Positions 2-14,469 of a stretch of DNA of 14,477 nucleotides are shown here, one piece after another. The DNA is from a virus. Its lineage: Duplodnaviria > Heunggongvirae > Uroviricota > Caudoviricetes. The position numbers were made by a program, and so were the translations under genes. The stretch lies in the IMG/VR virus record IMGVR_UViG_3300031555_004162, positions 1 to 14,477 of that record. The stretch is one strand, 5' to 3'. The notes beneath the pieces are model-generated. The model did not search any database, had not been told where the DNA came from, and saw only the letters and a list, made by a program, of their open reading frames with translations. Position 1 is the first letter of the stretch. Every line of letters begins with the position of its first letter.

Positions 2-1717
2 TATATTGAAATTATCTCTAGTTAATTTATATCGAACATCCGTATAAGTTAATTTTTCATTATAATCTTCTGTTTTATCTTTAGCCCAAGTATTTTGAAT
101 ATGATCATCTTTCATAAAAGACCATTCTCGTTGTAATATATTTGTGCTGTCTAAAGTAGATAATTGAATAGCGTCATTATGCACTTCTGAAAATCCTATC
201 ATATTTGAATCTGAAACTTTATATCTATCTTTTTTTGTTAAAATAACATTTCCAGCATTATCTACAATATCTCCAAAAATATTTACATAGTATGGAGATG
301 GAGTTATTATATCACTATTTTCATTATCCTTTATCATTATATATTGTTTTTTTCCTATATGAGTACTATCGATAAATGGTCTTTTGGTTTTACTCATAGG
401 AACATCAAAACCTATATCGTCCATTACAAACATACGAGTGCTTTTATCTACATGCCAATTGTATTTAATATCTGTATAACAATCATACACTTTCCAAACA
501 TTTTTTACAATTCCATTTATGGTTATATCTTCATCAACTAATTTATATTTTTTACTATAGTCGTGTGAATCATAAATTGTCATATCATCATTGTTTAAAT
601 AAAATCCATTAAAAACATCATTATCTAATAATTTATAAGCTGTGTTTAAAATTTTAGCAGGTTGTGAAACATCAAAATATATACCTGTGTAATAGTGTTT
701 ATTAGTAACAATATCATGTGTATATATTCTTGCATTTTTAACATATTCTCCATTCCATTCACCGTTATCATGCAATATTTTTCCACTTATTGGTTCAATA
801 TATCTATTTAAATCATTACCATATTTATCATAAAATCTACCATCTGTAAGATAAATATTACTACTTTTCCATAAAACAGCACTTTCAGTCCCTTTATTTG
901 TTTCATATGACGTTACACTCGGCATAGCTACATATTGCTGTATACCTGAATCTTCAAAAAATCCCCAAGTTTTATCAGATACAATAGGTTTATTATCTAT
1001 AAATTTAGATTCTCCCCATATCCAATCTTCTAAATGTTTCCACTTATGTTTTTTTATTGCATATTCATCTATTAATACAGGCCAACTATTTTGAATAGTA
1101 ATAGGAATATTGTTAATTGATAATAATTTACCAGTAATATAATCATATTTAGCTAATTTAAATTCATCATTTAATACTATTGTTTCAGTAGAAGTTACAT
1201 CATATGATGGAATGTATTCGACTTTCATACCTGCAGGTCTAACTGCTTCAATCATGTCTTTCAAAATAGGTAAATATTCTTGTGTATATAAATATATTCT
1301 TAATTTAGTAATTTTTCTACCCCATGAATCATAATCACTATCATATTCCATGCTAAAATGATTTTCCAAATTTAATTCTTCCGGATTACCCATCAAACAA
1401 ATAGACATTGCAATCGCTAATGTAATTCCTAACTCATTTCCTCTATTTCTAACTAATAAAGGATATAATTTAACAATCCATCTATTCGTAAGTACTCTTT
1501 CTCTTGGATTATAATTATATCCTACATAATTCGCTAATAAAGGTAATAATCTTGATTTACATTTTAAAGGATCTAATAAATTAGGAATAAAATTATCTGT
1601 ATCAGATTTAATAACGGACAATGCGACATTTATCGCCCTTAAAAACACTTGAAATTCTCTATTATCGCCAAAATATTTAGGAACATACTCTCTAACATCT
1701 AACATTGATCTTGCCAA
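2..1717 (-). CDS. Baseplate wedge / phage tail protein I-like protein (P2 gpI family N-terminal domain, long C-terminal extension); 3' end lies beyond the window
   Basis: Hand-translated: open frame from TTG at 1717 (RBS AGGTGA 7 nt upstream; alternative ATG at 1705) to the window edge with no stop, at least 572 codons. N-terminus MARSMLDVREYVPKYF...NLLDPLKCKSRLLPLLANYVGYNY...RNRGNELGI...IEAVRPAGMKV fits the P2 gpI-type LDP-x-C...LP-x-LA...G and later RPAG pattern. Absent from the ORF track, presumably because it has no stop in the window. Confidence 0.8.
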   Translation of the reverse strand, partial: MARSMLDVREYVPKYFGDNREFQVFLRAINVALSVIKSDTDNFIPNLLDPLKCKSRLLPLLANYVGYNYNPRERVLTNRWIVKLYPLLVRNRGNELGITLAIAMSICLMGNPEELNLENHFSMEYDSDYDSWGRKITKLRIYLYTQEYLPILKDMIEAVRPAGMKVEYIPSYDVTSTETIVLNDEFKLAKYDYITGKLLSINNIPITIQNSWPVLIDEYAIKKHKWKHLEDWIWGESKFIDNKPIVSDKTWGFFEDSGIQQYVAMPSVTSYETNKGTESAVLWKSSNIYLTDGRFYDKYGNDLNRYIEPISGKILHDNGEWNGEYVKNARIYTHDIVTNKHYYTGIYFDVSQPAKILNTAYKLLDNDVFNGFYLNNDDMTIYDSHDYSKKYKLVDEDITINGIVKNVWKVYDCYTDIKYNWHVDKSTRMFVMDDIGFDVPMSKTKRPFIDSTHIGKKQYIMIKDNENSDIITPSPYYVNIFGDIVDNAGNVILTKKDRYKVSDSNMIGFSEVHNDAIQLSTLDSTNILQREWSFMKDDHIQNTWAKDKTEDYNEKLTYTDVRYKLTRDNFNI

Positions 1718-2760: not shown

Positions 2761-3264
2761 TTAATCTTCTATTTTATCTGCAAATTTTAATTCTTTATAA
2801 TAATCTACTGCACTTGTAAATGCAAGAAATTCTAAATCTCTATCATCGTTTACATATCGTTTAGGTTCTTGTAAAAAAACAACATCATTAGTGTAAACAT
2901 TAAAAAATTCCTCTTCTTCAGTAAGAATTACTTCAACTTGTTTGCCATTAAAAGAGTAACTAGCATCAAATACAACTACTTCTTTCAAAGTATCATCCCA
3001 ATCAGGATCAGTTGTTACATCTTCTTTAACAACTTCTTTAGTAGCATCAATTACCGGTTTTCCAGGTCTTTCATCATCTCTTGTAGCAATTTTAACATCT
3101 AATATTTCTGCATCAGGTTTATATGATTTAAAATACTCAGATACTTGTTCTTCAGAATATCCTTTAATCAAATTAGCTTGATGTACATTATTGTGTTTAA
3201 ATGAGATATTAAATGTTTTTGTTTCATTTTCTTTTATCATTTGTAAGCTTTCAAAAAGATTCAT
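2761..3264 (-). CDS. Leader-bearing acidic protein (167 aa), candidate virion internal protein
   Basis: Starts MNLFESLQMIKE|N; RBS GGAGG; possible internal site VVKE81|D. Confidence 0.8.
   Translation of the reverse strand: MNLFESLQMIKENETKTFNISFKHNNVHQANLIKGYSEEQVSEYFKSYKPDAEILDVKIATRDDERPGKPVIDATKEVVKEDVTTDPDWDDTLKEVVVFDASYSFNGKQVEVILTEEEEFFNVYTNDVVFLQEPKRYVNDDRDLEFLAFTSAVDYYKELKFADKIED
3229..3264 (-). repeat. N-terminal leader copy MNLFESLQMIKE
   Basis: ATG AAT CTT TTT GAA AGC TTA CAA ATG ATA AAA GAA. Confidence 0.9.
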
Positions 3265-3287
3265 TTTAAATTCCTCCCATATTTTAA

Positions 3288-3626
3288 TTAAAATCTATTT
3301 AAGAAATAATACATACATTGTTTTATTACTTCTTCATAGCTTTCATATGATTCTATATCATCAATGATAAGTTCACCTTTTGAATTAGGTTTATCACCAT
3401 GACATCTAACAATATATCCTTCAAACGCTTCATCATAATTAAATGTGAAATGAGCATATATATCATTATCAGGTTTAGGAAATCTAATAGTAAGAGAATT
3501 TTCTTTAATCTCTACCTGATAATTAAGCTCTATTAATCGTTTATAAGGCTTACTATCCATAATTACTTCTAATGCTTCATCATAATTGTTTTCTTTAATT
3601 ATTTGGAGATTTTCAAACAAATTCAT
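3288..3626 (-). CDS. Leader-bearing protein (112 aa), candidate virion internal protein
   Basis: Starts MNLFENLQIIKE|N; RBS GAGGTGA overlaps the upstream TGA stop. Confidence 0.8.
   Translation of the reverse strand: MNLFENLQIIKENNYDEALEVIMDSKPYKRLIELNYQVEIKENSLTIRFPKPDNDIYAHFTFNYDEAFEGYIVRCHGDKPNSKGELIIDDIESYESYEEVIKQCMYYFLNRF
3591..3626 (-). repeat. N-terminal leader copy MNLFENLQIIKE
   Basis: ATG AAT TTG TTT GAA AAT CTC CAA ATA ATT AAA GAA. Confidence 0.9.
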
Positions 3627-3639
3627 TATGTTTCACCTC

Positions 3640-6165
3640 TCAATCTTCAAATATTAATCGCCAATTATCAGTCTTGAATTTATTAAATATGTTTTCAATA
3701 CCATTTTTAATTTGAATATCTAATTCACAAGTTTCAGCATCAATAACAAGTACTCTAAAATAATCTTCAGCCCATTCATTAATGTATGGGTAAATAAGAA
3801 TATATGCACCTGATACTAAATAGATTTCACCATCAGCATTTAAATTTTTAGCATTGAATTCTGAAGGTTGCCAATTATAATCTTCTCCATCCATATCTAT
3901 TTGGTCTAAACTATCTAAATAATCTTTTAAAGCATTAAATAATTTTTCTCCAGTTGCATAATCTCTATCTTCAATTACATTATGATTTGATTCAGTTAAT
4001 GATTCATTTTTTATACCAAATAAATATGCAACTATTCTACCAGGACATTCTGGTTCAAAATAAGCATCTTTATCATGTTTAACAATAACTTTATTTAATT
4101 CATCACATAATTTAGAAATTGATTCATATCCTAATTCTGCACCGACAGCTACCATCACATAATCATCATTGATATCCGTACTTACCGATAAATAATCATC
4201 AGCTTCATCTTCTGGGAATCCAACAGATAACATGAATTTATGAGCAGCTTCTTTAACTTCTTTTTCTAGTGTATCTAAAAATGTAGCCGCATTATCATCA
4301 TAATCTTCATCATTAGATTCTGTTAATTCTTGATATAAATTAGTTACATCTATCAATATTTCATAATCATCGGGTACACAATAAATATCGCATTTAGGAA
4401 ATACTTTCTGTAAATCTTTTTTATAACTATTATAATCTGACTGGTCGGAATTAGAAGAAATAGGTATAGTCATAAATCGTTGTTGATTCTGTGTATAAAA
4501 TGAGCTAGAATATGCAGCATCTACAAGTGGACCATATTTAAATTCATCACAAATCTTTTTAATTAATTTTTTGTTCACAGATGAATCGTTATCATCATTA
4601 TTAGATTCTCTTAATTTTTTACCATTGCTATCAATTATATCTACATTATCGTAATTATCATTTGATATAATAAAATTACGAGGATTAATTTCTGGATGAT
4701 TATCTTTAATATATTTTTCAGCAATATTTAAAGCTGCTTCATCGTTATCAGTGCTAACTTTAATGTGTCCTTTATAATCTGAAATATCATCTCCATCATA
4801 TGTGTATTCTACCGAAATTATATTATTTGACTCTCTTTTAGGTAATAGCATATCACCTAAATCTTTTTGTAATTTCTTAATACCATCAAGTTTAATAGGT
4901 TCAAAACCTTGAACTTGGTCATAATTAATAGGAACAACTTCTTTTGTTTGTTGATGTTCAGCTGCCCATACGCCTTTACCATCTACTATTTTGCGATACA
5001 GACTCCAACCTTTATTATAACCAGTACCTGTTGAAATATATTCATACTCATCTAAATTTATATCAACGGTTTCCATAAGTGAATTATGCACATATTCAAT
5101 TACTGAAGACCATTCTTCAAATGATATTTTATCTTCAACTCTACCATAACTCATATCAGCAATTTCTTCATCATCATTGATACCAGGATATGCCGATTTT
5201 GTATCTTTTATTATTTCTTTTATTTTAGAAACACCACCAACTTTGTTAATTAAAGAATCTATGTCACTAATCGATTCTTTAATTATTTCCTCATGTTCTA
5301 TGTCAGCGTTAAAATAACGTAAAAACTCATTAACAAATTTATGAGAATAAGCTTTAATTAAATCCTTTGGAACTTTAATTTTTCTCATATCAATTTTTTC
5401 TTTATGAGTATGTTCATCTTCACTATATGAAACTGTTAATTCAAGTTCATTAATATCATCATCAAGGTAACAATCAACTACATTTGCAACTATATCACCA
5501 TGTGTAGCGTCTGATAATTTTTCTATAACATCATTAGAAAATTCATCTAAATCATCTCTGGTAAAATAAGCAGTATCAATTATATCAAATGCTCCTCCAT
5601 AATGTTTACCTTCATATAGTCCATCATTTAAATCTTGTTCTGCATTATCTATATCATGCCAGCTATTACCATCTTCTAAATCTTTTATTTTAACATTCAT
5701 AAAAGATTGTTGAGCTTTTCTTGCAGAAGCAATAGCATCTTTAAGATTAGAATGTTCAGAATAAACTTCTTCATTACTTATTGCTAATTGACATGTAACT
5801 TGATATCTTATGCTTTCAGTAGTAAACTTAAGAGATTTTACATCAGCTGTATATTCTTTAGGTTCAGCATTAAATATTACATCATATCTAGCACTAAATG
5901 TATCTTGATCTGATTCTCCAATTTCTTCACTATTAATAGAAATATCAATTCCTTTACTTGTAAAGAATTCATCTATTAAATGTTTCATATATAAATGTTC
6001 GTGTTTCCAATCTCCATCATATATTACTATTTGCATACCATCTTTTGTTTCACCTAATTCATTATAGATGTATTGCGCGTTTTTTGACGCTAAAAATTCT
6101 TTAAATTCATTAATTAATGGATTTTTTGATTCTTTCATCAATTGTAAATTTTCAAATAAATTCAT
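3640..6165 (-). CDS. Large acidic leader-bearing protein (841 aa), candidate modular polyprotein packaged in the head
   Basis: Start moved to ATG 6165: TAATG overlap with the upstream stop, RBS AAGGTGA, and it begins exactly with MNLFENLQLMKE|S. Recurrent internal x-x-E|S/T/G sites. Confidence 0.85.
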   Translation of the reverse strand: MNLFENLQLMKESKNPLINEFKEFLASKNAQYIYNELGETKDGMQIVIYDGDWKHEHLYMKHLIDEFFTSKGIDISINSEEIGESDQDTFSARYDVIFNAEPKEYTADVKSLKFTTESIRYQVTCQLAISNEEVYSEHSNLKDAIASARKAQQSFMNVKIKDLEDGNSWHDIDNAEQDLNDGLYEGKHYGGAFDIIDTAYFTRDDLDEFSNDVIEKLSDATHGDIVANVVDCYLDDDINELELTVSYSEDEHTHKEKIDMRKIKVPKDLIKAYSHKFVNEFLRYFNADIEHEEIIKESISDIDSLINKVGGVSKIKEIIKDTKSAYPGINDDEEIADMSYGRVEDKISFEEWSSVIEYVHNSLMETVDINLDEYEYISTGTGYNKGWSLYRKIVDGKGVWAAEHQQTKEVVPINYDQVQGFEPIKLDGIKKLQKDLGDMLLPKRESNNIISVEYTYDGDDISDYKGHIKVSTDNDEAALNIAEKYIKDNHPEINPRNFIISNDNYDNVDIIDSNGKKLRESNNDDNDSSVNKKLIKKICDEFKYGPLVDAAYSSSFYTQNQQRFMTIPISSNSDQSDYNSYKKDLQKVFPKCDIYCVPDDYEILIDVTNLYQELTESNDEDYDDNAATFLDTLEKEVKEAAHKFMLSVGFPEDEADDYLSVSTDINDDYVMVAVGAELGYESISKLCDELNKVIVKHDKDAYFEPECPGRIVAYLFGIKNESLTESNHNVIEDRDYATGEKLFNALKDYLDSLDQIDMDGEDYNWQPSEFNAKNLNADGEIYLVSGAYILIYPYINEWAEDYFRVLVIDAETCELDIQIKNGIENIFNKFKTDNWRLIFED
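6130..6165 (-). repeat. N-terminal leader copy MNLFENLQLMKE
   Basis: ATG AAT TTA TTT GAA AAT TTA CAA TTG ATG AAA GAA. Confidence 0.9.
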
Positions 6166-7103
6166 TACCAATCACCTTCTTCACTAAATTGATCTACATA
6201 CTCTTCTAGCCAATCATCTATTTTTTCATATACAATATCGTATTCATCTCTAGTTAAATCTTTAATAACTAATTGACCCCATTCTTGTTCAACGTTTCTA
6301 CAATAATCCCATGTTGAAATTTCATCTTCTAAATCATCTAATGAAATAATTTCATTATCTATAAGTCGTTGAATAGAATAATTAAGTTCTATGGTATAAT
6401 CATATAATTTTTCAAATTCTTTCCAAATTTCAGATGAGCAATCCAACATATCTTCTGTATTTTCTTCAATAAGAAGATTAGGATTATCTCTTATTGTATC
6501 TATAACTTCATCAGCAAGTTCATTTAAAAAATTAGTATAATCTTTTTCAAACTGTTCATCATCAAAGAAAATATCAGGATCTCTATGTTCATCTGCAAAA
6601 GCTATAAGTGAATCAAATCCATTATCTGCCAAATAAGTCGCAGCTGGACCACACGATTCAATACCATAACCTGAAAAATAAATGTCTCCATCGTTATAAT
6701 CTCTATATAAAAGCCTCATTATTGCTCTTATAAGTTCACCTGCTTTTGTATCAGCTTTACCATTCGCAGGCACTAGATTATTAAAGAATGCATTAACATC
6801 TCCGCCTTCTGCATCAATTTTAGATTGAATATTTTTTGTAAGCTTATTATTTTTATTTTGTTCAAACCAATTTTTAATTTTACCTATTATATCTGTAACG
6901 CCTTCTGTTTTTACAAGCTTATCATCATCAAATCCATTGTATTGATCATCAAATACGTCTTCATCCCATTCATTGTTTTCTTCGGGCTCATCTGGATCAT
7001 AGTATGTTCCAAAAGGTTTGCCAGTGCGAGTATCTATACCAAGTTCATTATACTCTGATTCATTGTTTTCTTTAAACAGTTGTAAATTTTCAAAAAGATT
7101 CAT
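6165..7103 (-). CDS. Leader-bearing acidic protein (312 aa), candidate virion internal protein
   Basis: Starts MNLFENLQLFKE|N; very D/E-rich N-terminal part; globular-looking core GKADTKAGELIRAIMRLLYRDYNDGD...GYGIESCGPAATYL that I cannot assign. Confidence 0.85.
   Translation of the reverse strand: MNLFENLQLFKENNESEYNELGIDTRTGKPFGTYYDPDEPEENNEWDEDVFDDQYNGFDDDKLVKTEGVTDIIGKIKNWFEQNKNNKLTKNIQSKIDAEGGDVNAFFNNLVPANGKADTKAGELIRAIMRLLYRDYNDGDIYFSGYGIESCGPAATYLADNGFDSLIAFADEHRDPDIFFDDEQFEKDYTNFLNELADEVIDTIRDNPNLLIEENTEDMLDCSSEIWKEFEKLYDYTIELNYSIQRLIDNEIISLDDLEDEISTWDYCRNVEQEWGQLVIKDLTRDEYDIVYEKIDDWLEEYVDQFSEEGDW
7068..7103 (-). repeat. N-terminal leader copy MNLFENLQLFKE
   Basis: ATG AAT CTT TTT GAA AAT TTA CAA CTG TTT AAA GAA. 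Confidence 0.9.
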
Positions 7104-7134
7104 TCATTATCACAACTTTCTTAACATGTTATTT

Positions 7135-7152
7135 TATATTTTTATTTTAATT
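7135..7152 (-). promoter_or_regulatory. Candidate late promoter, second copy of AATTAAAATAAAAATATA
   Basis: Identical to 1750-1767; 32 nt upstream of the first gene of the leader cluster. Confidence 0.45.
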
Positions 7153-7160
7153 AAGCTGTA

Positions 7161-7388
7161 TTATTTCATTAATTTTTCTTTATATCTATCTAAAGCTCTA
7201 TTCTTTTTTCTATGATTCTTCCATTTTCTGTTTTTAAATTTCCATACTAAGATTAATATAAACCATTTAAACCTAATAAATATATTAGCTTTTTTCTTTT
7301 TAATTCTGTAAGGTTCTGATAAACAAGATATAGTATAATCCCAATACTCTCCATCAAGTGTAATATCCCAAAATATTTGTAAGGCCAT
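7161..7388 (-). CDS. Hypothetical basic protein (75 aa), short hydrophobic stretch
   Basis: RBS GGAGG at the end of the upstream gene; fills the gap between neighbours; Lys/Arg-rich with WFILILVW. Confidence 0.6.
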   Translation of the reverse strand: MALQIFWDITLDGEYWDYTISCLSEPYRIKKKKANIFIRFKWFILILVWKFKNRKWKNHRKKNRALDRYKEKLMK

Positions 7389-7391
7389 ATC

Positions 7392-7805
7392 TTATTCCTC
7401 CTTTAAATTTGCAGGTAAATTATGAATACTTGTAAGTTCAATATCTTTATATTTCATTTCCATAAAAATATCATTAAGGACTCTAACCATAAGCCCATGT
7501 TCAGTATTTGTATTTTCGTTACGATATAAATTTATATACCATCTAAGAATATCGACATTCGCAACTCCACCATTATTTATAATTTGTTGAACACCTTTAA
7601 CAAAACATTCTTCTGAACTAAAATTATCTTTATCGTTTATATGTCGGATTTCATCTTCATGTACATTAATACTATTAATTAAGTTTTCATTAAATCGAAG
7701 TAATCTAAAGAATGCTTCTTTTATTTCATATTTATCATTAAAGTTAGCGTCGCTTACTTCATCATATAATGAATTTAATTCTTTTCTAAGTTCTACTTTA
7801 TCCAT
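7392..7805 (-). CDS. Hypothetical protein (137 aa)
   Basis: RBS AAGGAG; tightly packed with neighbours. Confidence 0.8.
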   Translation of the reverse strand: MDKVELRKELNSLYDEVSDANFNDKYEIKEAFFRLLRFNENLINSINVHEDEIRHINDKDNFSSEECFVKGVQQIINNGGVANVDILRWYINLYRNENTNTEHGLMVRVLNDIFMEMKYKDIELTSIHNLPANLKEE

Positions 7806-7853
7806 TTTATTTCTCCTTTTATTATTCTTTTTATAAGTCTTATTTTATCAATT

Positions 7854-8396
7854 TTATTTTACACAATCATAGAATCCTTGAATACGTTTAACCCTGTCAG
7901 GTTGCCTAAGTTTTCTCAATGCTTTTGTTTCAATTTGTCTAACACGATCTTTACTAACATTAAGTAGAGTAGCTATTTCTTTAAAAGACATCGGATTATT
8001 ATCTTCTAGACCAAAACGAAGTTTTAAAACTCTTTCTTCACGAGAAGTAAGTGTTTTTAATACATTGAGTATAATTTCCTTTGATAATCTATTAATAGTG
8101 CGATCTTCAAAATTTATATCTACTAAAATCCGGTCATAATTAGTGTATATATTTTCTTTGTTTCTATTCTTAAGAAGAGATTTTATGACCTTAGTTGTTT
8201 TTATATGTATATAAGTTGCTTTCATATAATTAATAACATTATTATACGCCTCATTATTTTTAATATAATCAATTAATTCAACATAAACATCTTGAATAAA
8301 ATCATAATCATTAAGATATTCTGGGCACATCTTGGATATCCTATCAGTGACAATGTATTTATATTTATTAAAGTGTTCAATGTAATTACTATTCAT
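7854..8396 (-). CDS. Sigma-70-family protein with RpoD/SigA-like region 4 and a divergent N-terminal half
   Basis: LKTLTSREERVLKLRFGLEDNNPMSFKEIATLLNVSKDRVRQIETKALRKLRQPDRVKRIQGF closely parallels SigA region 4 (LT.RE..VL.LRFGL.DG...[27 protein letters not shown].R). DFIQDVYVELI is only weakly like an ECF region 2. Confidence 0.85.
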   Translation of the reverse strand: MNSNYIEHFNKYKYIVTDRISKMCPEYLNDYDFIQDVYVELIDYIKNNEAYNNVINYMKATYIHIKTTKVIKSLLKNRNKENIYTNYDRILVDINFEDRTINRLSKEIILNVLKTLTSREERVLKLRFGLEDNNPMSFKEIATLLNVSKDRVRQIETKALRKLRQPDRVKRIQGFYDCVK

Positions 8397-8412
8397 AGTT
8401 CTCTTTCCTTAA

Positions 8413-8628
8413 TCAAATATTAAAACTTTTCCCATTTACAATTATAAAATTATATTCCATGTCTAAAGCTTTATAAATTACAATTGCATCTTGATACTTA
8501 ATAGTTACTTTCTTTACTACAGGATAATCTTTATCATATTCTACATCTTCAACTTGACCAATTTTTAAGTAATGAGAATCATTTTGATTTACACAAATTA
8601 ATACATCATATTTTTTAATTGTATTCAT
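8413..8628 (-). CDS. Hypothetical protein (71 aa), beta-rich
   Basis: RBS GAGGTG; in-operon spacing. Confidence 0.7.
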   Translation of the reverse strand: MNTIKKYDVLICVNQNDSHYLKIGQVEDVEYDKDYPVVKKVTIKYQDAIVIYKALDMEYNFIIVNGKSFNI

Positions 8629-8639
8629 GATTTACACCT

Positions 8640-8903
8640 CTACTTTATATATGATTTAATTTCATCATATATGTATTTATTCTTTATTATTCTTTTATAT
8701 CCCCAATCCCAAAGTCTTAATAATGTTTTACTATATGGTTCCATACAATCATAATCTATATGATAATTATAATGAATACGATTAGCTATTCTATATTTAC
8801 ATATTGCTTTACTAATTTTACATCTCATATTAAATGTATGAATATTTTTAAGTATCAAATATAAAATTACAAAATAAATACTAAAGAATATATAGTTACC
8901 CAT
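8640..8903 (-). CDS. Hypothetical membrane-anchored protein (87 aa)
   Basis: Start moved to ATG 8903 (MGNYIFFSIYFVILYLIL, hydrophobic N-terminus) with RBS AGGAGA; removes the overlap with 8905-9102. Confidence 0.75.
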   Translation of the reverse strand: MGNYIFFSIYFVILYLILKNIHTFNMRCKISKAICKYRIANRIHYNYHIDYDCMEPYSKTLLRLWDWGYKRIIKNKYIYDEIKSYIK

Positions 8904-8904
8904 T

Positions 8905-9102
8905 TTAATTCTCCTTTTTATATTTATCATAAAATCTTTTAGCTTCAGCAAATGCTTCTTCAGGACTGTTAGCCCAACCAGCTCCACTGTTACACCATTG
9001 AGAATTTGGATTAGTAGTGTTTATTGAAGCTATCATCCAAAAATAATTACCTTTTTCATCAGGTTTCATATGTACTTCAATTTTATATTCATATTTATTC
9101 AT
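8905..9102 (-). CDS. Hypothetical protein (65 aa), possibly HicB-N-like fold
   Basis: RBS GGAGG; YKIEVHMKPDEKGNYFW...GWANSPEEAFAEAKR loosely resembles the HicB N-terminal pattern. Confidence 0.7.
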   Translation of the reverse strand: MNKYEYKIEVHMKPDEKGNYFWMIASINTTNPNSQWCNSGAGWANSPEEAFAEAKRFYDKYKKEN

Positions 9103-9120
9103 AATTATTAACCTCCATGA

Positions 9121-9291
9121 TTAATCTAAACCTCTAACCTTTTTAATAAATCTTCTAGCTTCTGCAAAATTACCTTCGTTTTGTAACTTCCAATATTCAC
9201 GATACTCTTCATCACTTAATTCATCAGTATCAATATATGTTATAACTTCTCTATTATATTTATCTTTTTTCCGTTTAATTTCTATCATCAT
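9121..9291 (-). CDS. Hypothetical protein (~56 aa)
   Basis: Start likely ATG 9291 or 9288 (MMIEIKRKK) after GGAG at 9305-9302, avoiding overlap with the KH gene. Confidence 0.65.
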   Translation of the reverse strand: MMIEIKRKKDKYNREVITYIDTDELSDEEYREYWKLQNEGNFAEARRFIKKVRGLD

Positions 9292-9296
9292 GACAA

Positions 9297-9572
9297 TTAT
9301 ACTCCACAATTACTAGCTACATATATCATTTCTTTTATACTTAGCTTTGTTACTCCATATTTTTTAAGTTCAACATTAAGCTTTACAAAATTTATTCCTT
9401 GTCTGCCAATAAGTACTCCAGGTTTATTGCAATGTAAAACAACATTTCCATCATCTTTTATTTCAATATAAACAATTATTTTACTATCACTGTTCATATC
9501 ATTTAAGATTTTTTCAATTGCAAGTTTAATATCAAATCCATTAATTTTTATTTTCTTTCTTTTAAATAACAT
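9297..9572 (-). CDS. Stand-alone type II KH-domain protein resembling the ribosomal protein S3 KH domain
   Basis: IEIKDDGNVVLHCNKPGVLIGRQGINFVKLNVELKK parallels S3 I-E-I...I-H-T-A-K-P-G-x-V-I-G-K-x-G...L...L; GxxG loop G56-R-Q-G59 intact; S3 N-terminal motif and C-terminal domain absent. Confidence 0.7.
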   Translation of the reverse strand: MLFKRKKIKINGFDIKLAIEKILNDMNSDSKIIVYIEIKDDGNVVLHCNKPGVLIGRQGINFVKLNVELKKYGVTKLSIKEMIYVASNCGV

Positions 9573-9917
9573 TTAAATCTCTCCAATCTCTTCAATGTAA
9601 TTATCAATATCTACTAATACAGATGAAATAAAATTATTTAATATGATTTTCATTTCTTGATTTGCATAATTGTATGCTTCTTTATATGTTCTAAAACCGT
9701 ATTTAGAATAACATGAACATAAATCATCTGATGTACTAAATAATTTATTTCCATTTTTAGAATAAAAAGTTACTGAATAATTTTCATCCGGTACTAATTC
9801 AACAATTGTTACATCTACATTAAAAATATTATGAATATTAATTTCTGCTAGATAATTATCACATAAAGTAATATTTTCTTTCTTTTTAAACACCAAATCT
9901 TTAATGATATATTCCAT
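9573..9917 (-). CDS. Hypothetical protein (114 aa)
   Basis: RBS AGGAGG; stop abuts the next start (TAAATG). Confidence 0.8.
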   Translation of the reverse strand: MEYIIKDLVFKKKENITLCDNYLAEINIHNIFNVDVTIVELVPDENYSVTFYSKNGNKLFSTSDDLCSCYSKYGFRTYKEAYNYANQEMKIILNNFISSVLVDIDNYIEEIGEI

Positions 9918-9943
9918 AAATAAATTCCTCCTATATTATATAA

Positions 9944-10243
9944 TCACATTTGAATAATTAAGTTATCCCCAGGATAAATTACTTCACCGTGTCTACAATA
10001 ACCATTTATTCTAACTAACAATTGTCTTGAAATAATAAGAAAATCTTTATTACTTAATGTTTTTATATTTTCTTCTTCAGAAATAAAAGGGTCTTGCCAT
10101 CTATCTTTCAAAATATAATCTACATTGTCTTTTCTAATAACTAAACATGAGCATAAATGAATAATGTTTAATGTTAAATTAAGTTCTTTTATAACTGCTA
10201 CTCTTTCTTTATCAGATATATAAACAGCATTATTTAATTTCAT
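9944..10243 (-). CDS. Hypothetical protein (99 aa)
   Basis: RBS AGGAGGT; operon spacing. Confidence 0.8.
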   Translation of the reverse strand: MKLNNAVYISDKERVAVIKELNLTLNIIHLCSCLVIRKDNVDYILKDRWQDPFISEEENIKTLSNKDFLIISRQLLVRINGYCRHGEVIYPGDNLIIQM

Positions 10244-10262
10244 TTAGATTACCTCCTATAAA

Positions 10263-10532
10263 TTATCCTCTACCAGTTGTAGTATCAAGCATTCTCATAT
10301 GAGGTTCATTTTCTTTAAATACTCCACCGGCATCTTTATAATTAAATTCAGCTCTAAGTCTTTCGGTTGTAGGTTCTCCAACAAATGTTACCTCTTTATG
10401 ATATGGATAGCCCGCAACTCTTTCAACTAATACTACAAAATATAATTCTCTATCTTCCATTAAAGTGATTGATGAGAAGATATAACAATCATTACCTTCT
10501 CTATTTAAGTCTGTTGTTGAAATAATTCTCAT
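10263..10532 (-). CDS. Hypothetical protein (89 aa)
   Basis: ATGA overlap with the upstream gene. Confidence 0.8.
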   Translation of the reverse strand: MRIISTTDLNREGNDCYIFSSITLMEDRELYFVVLVERVAGYPYHKEVTFVGEPTTERLRAEFNYKDAGGVFKENEPHMRMLDTTTGRG

Positions 10533-10846
10533 TTGTTATACCTCTCTTCTATAGGATATTTCCAGCAGTTGGTTGCATGATCTATACTAATATCTCCTTC
10601 ATAACCATAAGCTTTAGCTTTAAAGAATATAGGAGAATGATCGAATGTTTCTTCAATATTCTTTTCATCTAACTCCAATTCAATCACTGCAATATCTTCT
10701 GTCATATATCTTAATGCTACAAATCTAAAAGCTTCTTCTTGAGTTTTAGCAAGATATACAATTCCTTCCATAGACTTTTTAATTTTACCATCTTCAATAA
10801 TCTTAAGTAAATTAGTATAAGATGTTCCATGATAATATTTAGCCAT
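10529..10846 (-). CDS. Small ADP-ribosyltransferase-fold protein (H-Y class, PARP/Tpt1-like)
   Basis: YYH6GTS...LKIIEDGKI...GIVY31LA...EEAFRF...VIELE...YGYEGDI matches the HGT, I..G(L/I), aromatic-L and final Y-x-x-x-x-I strand pattern of this fold. First gene after promoter P2. Confidence 0.65.
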   Translation of the reverse strand: MAKYYHGTSYTNLLKIIEDGKIKKSMEGIVYLAKTQEEAFRFVALRYMTEDIAVIELELDEKNIEETFDHSPIFFKAKAYGYEGDISIDHATNCWKYPIEERYNK

Positions 10847-10870
10847 CGATTAGAATCTCCTTTGTTTAAT

Positions 10871-10907
10871 CTAATATAATTATAACATATTTTATTACAA
10901 ATGTAAA
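10871..10907 (-). promoter_or_regulatory. Sigma70/sigmaA-type promoter P2
   Basis: TTTACA (10907-10902), 17-nt spacer ending AAAATATGT, TATAAT (10884-10879), then TATATTAG as in P1. Confidence 0.85.
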
Positions 10908-10969
10908 TAATATTTTTATAATTATATGAAAAATACAAAATGTTTGTACATACTATATAACTAATCCTG

Positions 10970-12928
10970 TTATTTTTGTTCAAGTTGTATTTTTAATTCA
11001 TCTAATAAGTTTCTATATTTAATAGCTTCTTCAAAATCTAAATTTTCTGCAGCATATTTCATATTCTTTTTATAAGTTTTTATTAATGCTTTTATTTCAC
11101 TTAAAGATAAATTTTTATTTAAAGTACTATCATTTAATTGGCTACCTATAATATTTTTAATCAACTTCATTTCAGTATTTTTAGGCACAATATTATGTTC
11201 TTTATTATATTGCATTTGAATTTCTCTATGTCGATTAGTAGTATCAATTGCTTCTTGCATGCTTTTAGTTATATTATCTGCATATAGAATTGCTCTACCA
11301 TTTATATTTCTCGCGGCTCTTCCTATAGTTTGCAATAAAGATGTTTTATTTCTTAAAAATCCTTCTTTATCTGCATCTAAAATTATAACTAATTCGCAAT
11401 CAGATATAGACAAACCTTCTCTTAATAAATTGCATCCTATAAGAACATCAAACTCTCCTTGTTGTAATCTATTTATAGTATCTACTCTATTTATAGTGGG
11501 AATATTTGAATGTAAATAACAAGTTTTAATTTTTAATTCTTTTAAATAATCACTTAATGTTTCAGCCATTCTTTTTGTTAAAACAGTTATTAATGTTTTT
11601 CCGCCCCTTTTAACAACTTTATTTATTTCAGTGTATATATCATCTATTTGTCCTTTAATAGGTCTAACTTCTATTTTTGGATCAAGAATACCTGTAGGTC
11701 TTATTAATTGTTCTGATACAATTGTTGATTTATTTAATTCATATTCTGCAGGAGTAGCACTTACATATAATGTATAATTTTGTGCATTTTCAAATTCTTT
11801 AAATGTTAACGGCCTATTATCCATACAACTTGGAAGTCTAAATCCATAATTAATTAAGTTATGTTTTATACTTGAATTTTGATTTCCAATAGATTTTATT
11901 TGAGGTATAGTTGCATGACTTTCATCTATAATCATTAAATAATCTTTTGGAAAAAAATCTAACAGAGAATAAGGAGCAGAACCAGCAGGTCTATTTGTAA
12001 GATATCGTTGATAAACTTCCATATTTTTACAATAACCTATTTCTCTAATCATTTCTATATCATATTTTGTTCTATCTTTTATTCTTTGTGCATATATTAA
12101 TTCACCAGAGTTAATAAAATGGTTATAAGAGACTTCTAATTCTTTTTCTATAGAATTACATATATTATCTATAAATTTATCTTCTGCAATATAAGAGGAT
12201 ATATTAAACACAATCAATTCATTTACTTCTTCTATAATTTCATGATTATTAATGTTAAGCTTATTTATTTTCTCTATTTCATCACCAAACATTTGGATTC
12301 TATAAAATACATTATCATCTATTCCCAGCATTACATCTATAGTATCACCACTCACTTTAAATTTTCCTGATTTTAAAATATCAAATGTTCGTTCATATCT
12401 TCTAGTTATCAATGCTTTAAGTATTTCATCTCTATCTATTATTTGATTTTTCTTAATAATAAATCTAGTTTCATAAAATAAATTTGGATCACCTAATCCA
12501 AACAATGCACTTACACTTGCAACCACTATTACATCTTTTCTTGTCAATAATGATTGAGCACAATGTTGTCTCATTCTTTCTATATCTTCATTTATGACAG
12601 TTTCTTTAGCAATGTATTTATCTTCAGAAGGTACATAACATTCAGGTTGAAAGTGTTTATAATGACTAACAAAATACTCTACTGCATTATTAGGAAATAA
12701 ATCTTTAAATTCAGAATACAATTGAGCCGCTAATGTTTTATTATGTGAAATAATAACCGTCGGTTTATTTACATTTTTTATAATATTTGCCATGCAAAAT
12801 GTTTTTCCAGAACCAGTCACACCTAACAATGTATTTTGTTTGTTACCTTTTTGCATTGATCTAGTTAATTCATTAATTACTTTTGGTTGATCACCTGTAA
12901 GTTTATAATTTGTATTTAACTCAAACAA
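10970..12928 (-). CDS. uvrB: Excinuclease ABC subunit B homologue (652 aa)
   Basis: GDQP, Walker A GVTGSGKT, HNKTLAAQLY, DESH, GFRLPS..DNRPL, VSATP, RPTG.LDP, NLLREGL, ILDADKEGFLR, QTIGRAARN and C-terminal UVR coil (AAENLDFEEAIKYRN). TTG start with RBS GGAGGT. Confidence 0.97.
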   Translation of the reverse strand: MFELNTNYKLTGDQPKVINELTRSMQKGNKQNTLLGVTGSGKTFCMANIIKNVNKPTVIISHNKTLAAQLYSEFKDLFPNNAVEYFVSHYKHFQPECYVPSEDKYIAKETVINEDIERMRQHCAQSLLTRKDVIVVASVSALFGLGDPNLFYETRFIIKKNQIIDRDEILKALITRRYERTFDILKSGKFKVSGDTIDVMLGIDDNVFYRIQMFGDEIEKINKLNINNHEIIEEVNELIVFNISSYIAEDKFIDNICNSIEKELEVSYNHFINSGELIYAQRIKDRTKYDIEMIREIGYCKNMEVYQRYLTNRPAGSAPYSLLDFFPKDYLMIIDESHATIPQIKSIGNQNSSIKHNLINYGFRLPSCMDNRPLTFKEFENAQNYTLYVSATPAEYELNKSTIVSEQLIRPTGILDPKIEVRPIKGQIDDIYTEINKVVKRGGKTLITVLTKRMAETLSDYLKELKIKTCYLHSNIPTINRVDTINRLQQGEFDVLIGCNLLREGLSISDCELVIILDADKEGFLRNKTSLLQTIGRAARNINGRAILYADNITKSMQEAIDTTNRHREIQMQYNKEHNIVPKNTEMKLIKNIIGSQLNDSTLNKNLSLSEIKALIKTYKKNMKYAAENLDFEEAIKYRNLLDELKIQLEQK

Positions 12929-12956
12929 AATAATTAACCTCCACTTTATAACTTTT

Positions 12957-12989
12957 TATAATTATAACATATTTTCATATAAATGTAAA
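12957..12989 (-). promoter_or_regulatory. Sigma70/sigmaA-type promoter P3 (uvrB)
   Basis: TTTACA (12989-12984), 17-nt spacer ending AAAATATGT, TATAAT (12966-12961), TATA. Confidence 0.85.
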
Positions 12990-13024
12990 TAGTTTTACAA
13001 TAAAAACTTTACATTTGTTAATTA

Positions 13025-13054
13025 TTTACAAAAATTTTAAAATATAAATATAAT
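13025..13054 (+). promoter_or_regulatory. Candidate promoter for the plus-strand gene
   Basis: TTTACA (13025-13030), 18-nt spacer, TATAAT (13049-13054); also contains TATAAATA (13043-13050). Early versus late type is ambiguous. Confidence 0.5.
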
Positions 13055-13076
13055 AATTTAAAGAGGTGAAAATGAA

Positions 13077-13436
13077 ATGATTAGAATATTAGAAGATTTA
13101 CAAATAATAAAAGAAACTAATGCAACTGTTGATAAAGCTATTGAAAAAACATACGATTCTATAGATAAAGAATTAAACAGTTTAAAAGGTGATAAAGCAA
13201 TAATTCATGGCGAAGATAATCAAAATAATATCGCAAATACATATTTATTAAGAATTGAAAAAATAACTAAAAATAAAAAATATGTACATGAATATTTATT
13301 AGATACAACAATTTCCGAAGGATTAGAACAATGGTTGAATAAAATTAATAATGCAGGTTATATAAGTGCATTATTTAAAATTATAGATAAAATGAATGAA
13401 TTAGGTATTATTAAAAACATTCATAATGAAAAATAA
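13077..13436 (+). CDS. Variant-leader protein (119 aa); only plus-strand gene
   Basis: RBS GAGGTGA; starts MIRILEDLQIIKE|T; own promoter-like region and terminator. Confidence 0.8.
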   Translation: MIRILEDLQIIKETNATVDKAIEKTYDSIDKELNSLKGDKAIIHGEDNQNNIANTYLLRIEKITKNKKYVHEYLLDTTISEGLEQWLNKINNAGYISALFKIIDKMNELGIIKNIHNEK

Positions 13437-13442
13437 ACATAT

Positions 13443-13478
13443 AAAAAGCTCCTACTAATTAATTAGTAGGAGCTTTTT
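13443..13478. terminator. Bidirectional terminator, 36-bp perfect palindrome
   Basis: aaaaagctcctactaatt|aattagtaggagcttttt between convergent stops at 13436 and 13490. Confidence 0.9.
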
Positions 13479-13489
13479 TAATCATTAAT

Positions 13490-13792
13490 TTAAATATTAT
13501 ACAAATCGATGCTTACATTATTTACGATTCTAATGTCATTATAAAACTCACCATTTTCAGTATTTTCTATATCTCTATAATCAATTTCTTCAATAAAATC
13601 AGAATAATCGAAATATTCTAATGTTTCTCCATCTTTTGTTTCATCTAATTGTTTAGCACATGCAATTGCTTCATCTACATTGTCAAATATAATTATTCCA
13701 TGAATCGCTGTATGCATATTTCTAAAGTTAATACCATATTTTTGATTATTTTCTGATTCTTTAAGTGTTTGTAAATTTTCAAATAAATTCAT
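13490..13792 (-). CDS. Leader-bearing acidic protein (100 aa), candidate virion internal protein
   Basis: Starts MNLFENLQTLKE|S; RBS GAGGTGA. Confidence 0.8.
   Translation of the reverse strand: MNLFENLQTLKESENNQKYGINFRNMHTAIHGIIIFDNVDEAIACAKQLDETKDGETLEYFDYSDFIEEIDYRDIENTENGEFYNDIRIVNNVSIDLYNI
13757..13792 (-). repeat. N-terminal leader copy MNLFENLQTLKE
   Basis: ATG AAT TTA TTT GAA AAT TTA CAA ACA CTT AAA GAA. Confidence 0.9.
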
Positions 13793-13843
13793 TTTATTTC
13801 ACCTCTTTACTCGACTATATATCACGTAATATACACCATAATC

Positions 13844-14176
13844 TTAAACGGTCTTTCTCATTGTAGTCCCCCAACCTCTTCCATTATAGAATCTATGAGG
13901 GCTGTTGTTATGTATATTTGCATGAATGAATTTAGATACAATTTCCATCTTATCTTCTGCAACTTTTGATTTCTTAACTTTGTTAACAATAGCTTCATAT
14001 GGATTATTAACATAACCACAAGAGCTACAATCTCTCATCAAGTCTTGAAGTATTGAAGAATCTTCATCAATTAGTTCGGCAAATTCTTTAACTGTATAGT
14101 TTGTAAGGTCTAACTTTTTGTCTTCTATTTCATTAGCTTCTCTCATCATTTGTAAATTTTCAAATAAATTCATCAT
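13844..14176 (-). CDS. Leader-bearing protein (109-110 aa), candidate virion internal protein
   Basis: (M)MNLFENLQMMRE|A; tandem ATGs at 14176 and 14173; RBS GAGGT. Confidence 0.8.
   Translation of the reverse strand: MMNLFENLQMMREANEIEDKKLDLTNYTVKEFAELIDEDSSILQDLMRDCSSCGYVNNPYEAIVNKVKKSKVAEDKMEIVSKFIHANIHNNSPHRFYNGRGWGTTMRKTV
14138..14173 (-). repeat. N-terminal leader copy MNLFENLQMMRE
   Basis: ATG AAT TTA TTT GAA AAT TTA CAA ATG ATG AGA GAA. Confidence 0.9.
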
Positions 14177-14199: not shown

Positions 14200-14469
14200 T
14201 TATGCTTTCTTATCAAAATTTCCTCTAAATAATTCCCAATAAGAACCAGTTGCAACTAAATCCGAATTAACCTCTTCAATACCAGCTCTCATGTGTGAAG
14301 CTAAATCCCTTTGAAATTCTCTACATTTATTTTGAGCTTCTTCAAAAGAATCATAAACTTTATCTAAAAAAGAAGTACGTTGAGAAAAATCTTTACTAAA
14401 CATATGACGAGATGTAAGAACATATTTTACATCATTACTTTCATCTATAGATTCAATTATTCTAATCAC
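14200..14469 (-). CDS. Variant-leader protein (89 aa if GTG 14469 is the start)
   Basis: MIRIIESIDE|SN; the frame is open to the window edge, so the start cannot be confirmed. Confidence 0.65.
   Translation of the reverse strand: MIRIIESIDESNDVKYVLTSRHMFSKDFSQRTSFLDKVYDSFEEAQNKCREFQRDLASHMRAGIEEVNSDLVATGSYWELFRGNFDKKA

Follow-up and report, generated by a model that had tools for sequence, protein, structure and literature searches.

The first 14,477 nucleotides of the 78.5-kb IMG/VR viral contig IMGVR_UViG_3300031555_004162 (Caudoviricetes; hereafter G000), designated the window, carry a set of minus-strand open reading frames (ORFs) whose products begin with one and the same 12-residue peptide. 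This N-terminal leader, or tag, and the proteins headed by it, hereafter called cargos, are the subject of the present analysis. G000 has a GC content of 25% and an estimated completeness of 37%, corresponding to a whole phage of about 210 kb, and the phage is a large, uncultured one of gut or rumen Firmicutes. An earlier inspection of the window from its letters alone (the sequence-only reading) had listed six tagged ORFs, all of which read as described, following the pattern MNLFE[NS]LQxx[KR]E; as it had also claimed, none of the genes in 7161–12928 (sigma factor, UvrB and small ORFs) has the leader. Running the proposed leader scan over the whole contig gave 10 exact copies, a larger set, four of which lie just past the window (contig positions 15578, 15921, 16285 and 18189). 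Diverged copies lie at 13077(+) and contig position 15052(-) (MIKILEDFQTLKE), and weak candidates at 14469(-) and contig position 18555(-), so that the diverged copies number 2–4 in total. Variants were counted only with extended similarity to LEDLQxxKE or orthology to a tagged cargo. N-termini of the MI[KR]I type alone were rejected as members, being common in an AT-rich genome, as was a protein at contig position 49945 that begins MLKILTE but is otherwise unconnected with the family. Blind clustering of all N-termini preceded by a Shine-Dalgarno sequence in G000 recovered the leader family and no second family. The features of the window are collected in Table 1.

Table 1 Tagged genes, promoter-like motifs and other elements of the window (positions are those of the window)
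Feature	Position	Strand	Product (aa)	Leader	Residue after leader	Remark
Promoter TTTACA-17-TGnTATAAT	2671-2643
c3264, tagged	2761..3264	-	167	MNLFESLQMIKE	N	acidic orphan, pI (isoelectric point) 4.4
c3626, tagged	3288..3626	-	112	MNLFENLQIIKE	N	acidic orphan
c6165, tagged	3640..6165	-	841	MNLFENLQLMKE	S	modular
c7103, tagged	6165..7103	-	312	MNLFENLQLFKE	N	stop overlaps next start by one base
Promoter-like motif AAATAAAAATATAA	7134..7147	-				31 nt 5' of c7103; candidate phage-specific (late-type) promoter
Promoter TTTACA-17-TGnTATAAT	10907-10879
Promoter TTTACA-17-TGnTATAAT	12989-12961					UvrB operon
Promoter-like motif, same class as AAATAAAAATATAA	13040-13053	+				precedes v13077
v13077, diverged leader	13077..13436	+	119	MIRILEDLQIIKE	T	opposite strand
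Intrinsic terminator	13443..13478	-				ends upstream tagged run (contig 18189 to 13490), ahead of UvrB operon promoter
c13792, tagged	13490..13792	-	100	MNLFENLQTLKE	S
c14173, tagged	13844..14173	-	109	MNLFENLQMMRE	A	110 aa if translation starts from the extra Met (14176)
Weak candidate variant	14200..14469	-	89	VIRIIESIDESND		GTG start; membership uncertain

Beyond the leader, the tagged proteins lack similarity to each other, as previously asserted: all-against-all BLASTP among 14 leader-trimmed cargos gave a best E value of 0.017 (14-sequence database), and when the profiles of two cargo families rich in homologs were compared, residues 1–16 aligned and nothing else did. Ten identical eight-residue N-termini on unrelated proteins cannot have arisen by chance. 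Alignment of the DNA of all start regions revealed conservation confined to codons 1–12, the sequences parting ways at codon 13, and 5' of the leader ATG only the Shine-Dalgarno sequence is conserved. Within the leader (positions 2–8 and 12), 67 synonymous as against 9 non-synonymous pairwise differences were counted, which bears out the codon variation and the selection at the peptide level that had been proposed; moreover, synonymous codon choice equals genome usage, with TTA for Leu3 in 7/10 copies versus 67% genome-wide. Since the synonymous sites are free and codon choice is genome-like, selection acts on the peptide and not on the RNA or DNA. The peptide also persists with different codons over contigs of 25–29% GC. 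Residues 10–12 are [IMFL]-[KRN]-E in all 10 exact copies, and most copies in relatives likewise end in hydrophobic-x-Glu, with few exceptions. A signal peptide and a double-glycine bacteriocin leader were rejected by inspection, as there is neither a hydrophobic core nor a GG. The consensus had not been recognized from any described phage, and we did not find it in the literature searched; no cultured phage matched the window in a megablast search.

The census over 11 related sequences comprises 35 tagged ORFs belonging to 25 unrelated cargo families. A metagenomic hit consisting of a 25-codon ORF on a contig of 35% GC (L040) was judged a chance match and excluded. Backbone genes are conserved from one syntenic relative to the next, whereas a tagged gene may be retained, exchanged for another or missing.

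Three further IMG/VR contigs (G001, G002 and G003) contain the exact DNA pattern of the leader. In 3/3 of these, a Peptidase_S77 domain (T4 gp21) scored above the Pfam cut-off about 1 kb or less 3' of a tagged gene, and no HK97-type protease was detected in G001, G002 or G003. The gene directly 5' of the protease gene is itself tagged, encoding 279 amino acids (aa) in G002 and G003 and 185 aa in G001. In G003 (113 kb), a T4-type portal (Portal_T4, PF07230) and a gp23 capsid protein (PF07068) are encoded as well, and two more tagged genes are located just past the head-tail adaptor gene. On a contig from a Bacillales metagenome-assembled genome (MAG; L046), found via the protease, two tagged genes flank a conserved gene 5' of the protease, and a 705-aa protein of the head module carries MKLELKE↓[SN]N at its N-terminus and again internally (the arrow follows the Glu of the putative cut site here and below). 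A single-protein search with the protease returned the same contigs only. Collectively, all relatives with a head module have tagged genes adjoining the gene of the S77 prohead protease, and the portal and capsid genes close by are of T4 type.

G000 and G003 have no proteins in common; what they have in common is the leader and a promoter cassette. Both types occur together on a 226-kb metagenomic contig, JAEIGA010000013.1 of assembly GCA_016852305.1, one end of which is syntenic with the window, with a fibre-like gene 57% identical to its counterpart followed by three tagged genes, and with a backbone block of small genes showing ~40–89% identity to the window. Elsewhere, the same contig carries G003-type baseplate genes with 49–75% identity. 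As this contig holds both types, the G000- and G003-type fragments represent one phage group. Moreover, on the 226-kb contig a window-like cluster contains the cargo family whose genes adjoin the protease in G003 and the MAG. The shared cargo family and the 226-kb contig thus place the tagged genes of the window in the same class as those of the head module, and we infer that the window's own lineage also encodes an S77 protease.

The end of the leader had been taken for a protease-type site and was compared, as proposed, with the proteases of the relatives. The leader end Φ-[KRNHQ]-E (Φ, hydrophobic residue) fits the specificity of T4 gp21, which cleaves after Glu in L/I-X-E (PMC9026906). Three related proteases themselves contain a conserved [IV]-K-E↓[NSD] about 35–40 residues from the N-terminus, and the capsid proteins of the relatives contain [YF]-M-E↓A shortly before the start of the gp23 domain. 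The cultured phages nearest in capsid protein, with ~30% identity, are Listeria LIS04, Bacillus SP-15, Bacillus HSE3 and Streptococcus vB_SagM-GXN1. The last of these, GXN1 (L033, PQ819873.1), has an S77 protease, a T4-type portal and a capsid protein with ~29% identity. Blind clustering of its N-termini yielded one family, MRL[VI][RK]L[TN]E, shared by four small proteins that are otherwise dissimilar. Their ORFs, all unannotated, lie in 14888–17009 and at record position 98803, and three of them come straight after the capsid gene. The GXN1 protease begins MSENVMLLTE↓, and the portal contains GLLTE↓S. As tag, protease and portal all show L-T-E in GXN1, as against Φ-K-E here, tag end and head-protein sites co-vary between lineages. 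GXN1 is a cultured analogue of the tag system; most genes in its record are unannotated.

The T4 facts invoked in the sequence-only reading, namely the capsid-targeting sequence (CTS), the L/I-X-E site and the action of IPI against GmrSD-type enzymes, were confirmed in the literature (PMC8442874, PMC9026906, PMC3012670). In T4, the CTS is present on IPI, IPII, IPIII and Alt and is removed by gp21 (Mullaney and Black 1996, reviewed in PMC9026906, PMC3012670), targeting requiring residues 4 and 7 and processing residues 8 and 10 (PMC9026906); the internal-protein loci of T-even phages encode diverse proteins with the CTS alone in common (PMC3012670). Likewise, the leader studied here is a short N-terminal peptide on unrelated, fast-evolving proteins that ends in hydrophobic-x-Glu, and the tag-bearing relatives have a portal, a gp21/S77 protease and a gp23 capsid protein of T4 type. 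Its layout resembles that of MKTYQEFIAE (PMC8442874), with an aromatic residue at position 4, a hydrophobic one at 7, acidic character at 5–6 and a hydrophobic residue three before the final Glu. The arrangement is also alike, the conserved hydrophobic residues being 3–4 and 7 and the putative cut site lying at 10–12. In T4, an Asp in place of the Glu prevents processing and leaves targeting intact. The leader probably works like the T4 CTS and is not identifiably homologous to MKTYQEFIAE. Every prediction of a capsid-targeting function that could be tested at the sequence level was borne out, and the leader is probably a T4-type capsid-targeting propeptide removed by the prohead protease. The earlier suggestion of an address label that loads varied proteins into the head for injection thereby gains support from the comparison with relatives.

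The leader and its phage also differ from T4. There is no sequence identity between the two peptides, the leader has 12 residues versus 10, and P3 may here also be Met or Phe. At least 12 tagged genes occur within 18 kb, compared with 3–4 in T4. The phage, with ~210–226 kb, 25% GC and a Firmicutes host, differs from T4 in group and in host phylum. The protease is here fused to a long coiled coil, whereas T4 has a separate gp22: in G003 (L023:16217-18130), G001 (L020) and L046, the gp21-type protease is fused to a coiled coil of ~400 residues with a conserved C-terminal domain, apparently a protease-scaffold fusion that replaces the separate gp21 and gp22 of T4.

Similar processing is known from the giant phages phiKZ, 201phi2-1 and SPN3US, in which a gp21-family protease cuts after Glu and many internal head proteins are processed, some of them at several sites (PMC5694885, PMC9026906). 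Their propeptides mostly span 80–160 residues, with the motif S/A-x-E or A-x-E (PMC5694885), in contrast to the 12-residue tag described here. The SPN3US paralogs gp53 and gp54 have an identical 15-residue N-terminus with a cut motif (PMC5694885, PMC9026906). That shared N-terminus joins paralogs, whereas the tag here heads unrelated proteins. The cargo-loading peptides of encapsulins are also short terminal peptides that bring varied cargo into an HK97-fold shell, but they are usually C-terminal, remain uncleaved, are not phage-encoded and have no role in injection.

The cargos themselves gave few clues to their function. Most are strongly acidic, with a pI of 4.0–4.8; searches of Pfam and PHROGs produced no match for any cargo of the window, and the ESM Atlas contained nothing usable on them. 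AlphaFold models of c7103 and c13792 (predicted local distance difference test, pLDDT, 78 and 81, respectively) had no significant match in PDB, BFVD or the AFDB clusters. In the c7103 model, the leader forms a short helix followed by a disordered acidic linker of ~50 residues and a confidently predicted domain (70–305), and in that of c13792 the leader is a helix external to a compact alpha/beta domain; in both, the leader helix is of low confidence and separate from the folded domain. A resemblance of c7103 to DMP19-type "DNA mimics" (E value, 0.73; probability, 0.16) was too weak for use. Nine orthologs of c13792, with 56–100% identity, all have the leader. A methyltransferase-like region below threshold (Methyltransf_23; E value, 0.001) was noted in a 353-aa tagged protein from a human gut contig (L042:690-1751 (+)); no other tagged cargo gave a sign of an enzyme domain.

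The cargo domain of c7103 has 36 homologs on phage-like contigs. The close ones begin MNLFENLQ or MDLFE[SN]LQ, and one ortholog begins MIKILES, which indicates that the two forms of the leader are interchangeable. Distant homologs have other short N-termini ending in hydrophobic-x-Glu (MKFLLE, MRFLTE, MKTIRE and MKLHMKE). The domain contains the motif ...SGKADTKAGELIRAMMRLLYRDYNDGD... in residues 100–230, forms in one case the C-terminal portion of a 504-aa HIRAN-domain protein (P0046) and is also found on a contig of 142 kb (L048) that is recoded with TGA as Trp. In an ortholog from a 31-kb ENA contig (P0019), the last 14 residues, VDLFENLSLLDENE, constitute a second leader-like sequence at the C-terminus, as if the next tagged gene had been fused in frame or were read through. 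Among the neighbours of the distant homologs on L048 and a 129-kb contig (L049), several start with M-[KR]-[LF]-[LI]-x-E (MKLLKE, MKLIKE, MRLLKE, MKLILE, MKFLLE and MRFLTE) beside tail-fibre-like genes (Mtd_N, DUF285 and LRR_5); these starts may be another lineage-specific short tag.

The largest cargo, c6165, contains sites like the leader end in its interior: L-[RT]-E↓S-N at residues 520, 616 and 725 and I-K-E↓S at 297. A count of three L-x-E↓S-N sites was reached in 3/2000 shuffles, and the tripeptide ESN is about 10 times as frequent in the cargos as elsewhere in the proteome. One copy of K-R-E↓S-N is also present. In the 226-kb relative, the counterpart has 529–537 aa, comprising the first and last parts and missing the middle. 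The protein c6165 may be a polyprotein that the head protease cleaves.

Two classes of promoter were distinguished. One comprises strong host-type promoters (TTTACA-17-TGnTATAAT), located 5' of the UvrB operon and of the gene at 2606; none was found 5' of c7103, where AAATAAAAATATAA is present instead. The latter belongs to a distinct class, AAATA[ACT]AA[AT]1-2TATA[AT], located mostly 25–37 nt before start codons. In G003, the motif AAATAnAAwTATAw occurs in 22 copies as compared with ~4.5 expected, and copies precede the protease, baseplate and fibre genes and one tagged gene. This distribution is compatible with the co-expression of tagged and structural genes. At the left end of the window, a truncated 572-aa ORF (2–1717 (-)) corresponds to the N-terminal part of a 718-aa protein, which in another assembly is followed by proteins of 1720 aa (faintly Big_2-like) and >1212 aa. 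With these neighbours, the tagged cluster abuts a tail-fibre-like module.

Several observations weigh against a capsid-targeting propeptide. The genes for protease, portal and capsid are absent from G000; because this contig is 37% complete, the link of the tag to the head rests on the relatives. A few tagged copies have no clean Φ-x-E at residues 10–12, as seen in G003 63315 (with the first such site at residue 18) and L044 360 (ending in LED). Two tagged genes (L038 and L045) are located within baseplate modules, between a wedge protein and a fibre gene, and a protein of G003 that is partly homologous to these two has no tag. The cargos are acidic, unlike the IPI–III proteins of T4, which are basic and associated with DNA (PMC9026906). 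In transcription, the sigma/UvrB operon and the tagged run at 7103–2761 have no terminator between them, and the promoter-like motif is found before some non-structural genes as well, for which reason it was not accepted as proof of late expression.

Some of these points would also be expected if the leader served to dock the proteins onto some other common partner, such as a chaperone, a factor of tail or baseplate assembly or a protein of the host, with no loading into the capsid: the tagged genes in the wedge-fibre interval, the acidity of the cargos and the position of the G000 clusters, which lie beside fibre-like genes and 3' of an early-type operon, would all be in keeping with it. We nevertheless consider docking unlikely, since the S77 protease is the only gene that stands beside tagged genes in every relative holding the relevant region, and since an invariant Glu with a hydrophobic P3, co-varying with the head-protein sites in GXN1, would serve no purpose in a simple docking motif. 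The protease-type site at the end of the leader and the like sites within the 841-aa protein would also be explained by a mere removable propeptide that keeps effectors inactive until it is cut off after Glu12 by a phage or host protease, with no part in sorting. That the best-conserved part is residues 1–8 and not the cut site, a split as in T4 (PMC9026906), and that gp21-type proteases are described as working within proheads make this quite improbable.

A function of the nucleic acid, as an enhancer of translation initiation or as a homology handle for the swapping of cassettes, is suggested by the AT-rich copies behind a strong Shine-Dalgarno sequence and by the fact that cargo genes do swap between relatives. 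We regard it as very improbable, because the synonymous sites vary at genome usage while the peptide stays invariant, the peptide is kept in contigs of 25–29% GC and nothing is conserved 5' of the ATG; a role in recombination could be a by-product. One N-terminal tag on many unrelated proteins might, finally, serve to be recognized by a modifying enzyme such as a radical-SAM enzyme, as happens with the leaders of ribosomally synthesized and post-translationally modified peptides. This possibility deserves hardly any credence: G000, G001 and G002 contain no Radical_SAM match, the sole match in G003 is a small activase-sized ORF beside an anaerobic-type ribonucleotide reductase gene, >30 kb from the tagged genes, and, the S77 protease excepted, no enzyme recurs beside tagged genes.

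Returning to the capsid-targeting propeptide, we infer the following course of events from the sequence comparisons. The first eight residues, M-N-L-F-E-N-L-Q, would form a short amphipathic helix that binds the scaffolding core while the prohead assembles, and every protein with the leader would thereby be enclosed. The last three residues (a hydrophobic one; K, R, N, H or Q; and Glu) would constitute the cut site of the gp21-type (S77) prohead serine protease, and the freed cargo would remain in the head and enter the host along with the DNA. The protein c6165 would probably be cut into pieces at its internal L-x-E↓S-N sites. The cargos, a quickly changing group whose members are mostly small and acidic, are probably effectors of host takeover or anti-defence; in T4, IPI* acts as a first-line counter-defence protein. 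We would put forward only tentatively the more far-reaching possibility that the tag reveals the entire injected set of a clade of large gut and rumen phages of Firmicutes, comprising at least 25 unrelated, rapidly exchanged effector families (mostly small acidic proteins, which could be DNA mimics or defence inhibitors) and an 841-aa polyprotein diced into separate effectors in the capsid, and that on one and the same cargo domain the tag can give way to other lineage-specific tags across distant phage groups.

If the leader does target proteins to the capsid, a simple N-terminal pattern would pick out the proteins that uncultured jumbo phages of gut Firmicutes deliver before gene expression, providing a list of candidates for anti-defence and host-takeover functions, which are at present orphans without a known fold. 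The leader would also be a natural tag for putting foreign proteins into such phages. The co-variation between the end of the tag and the protease sites may allow the specificity of a prohead protease to be predicted from sequence only. Moreover, the capsid-targeting principle of T4 would reach a distant group of phages on Gram-positive hosts.

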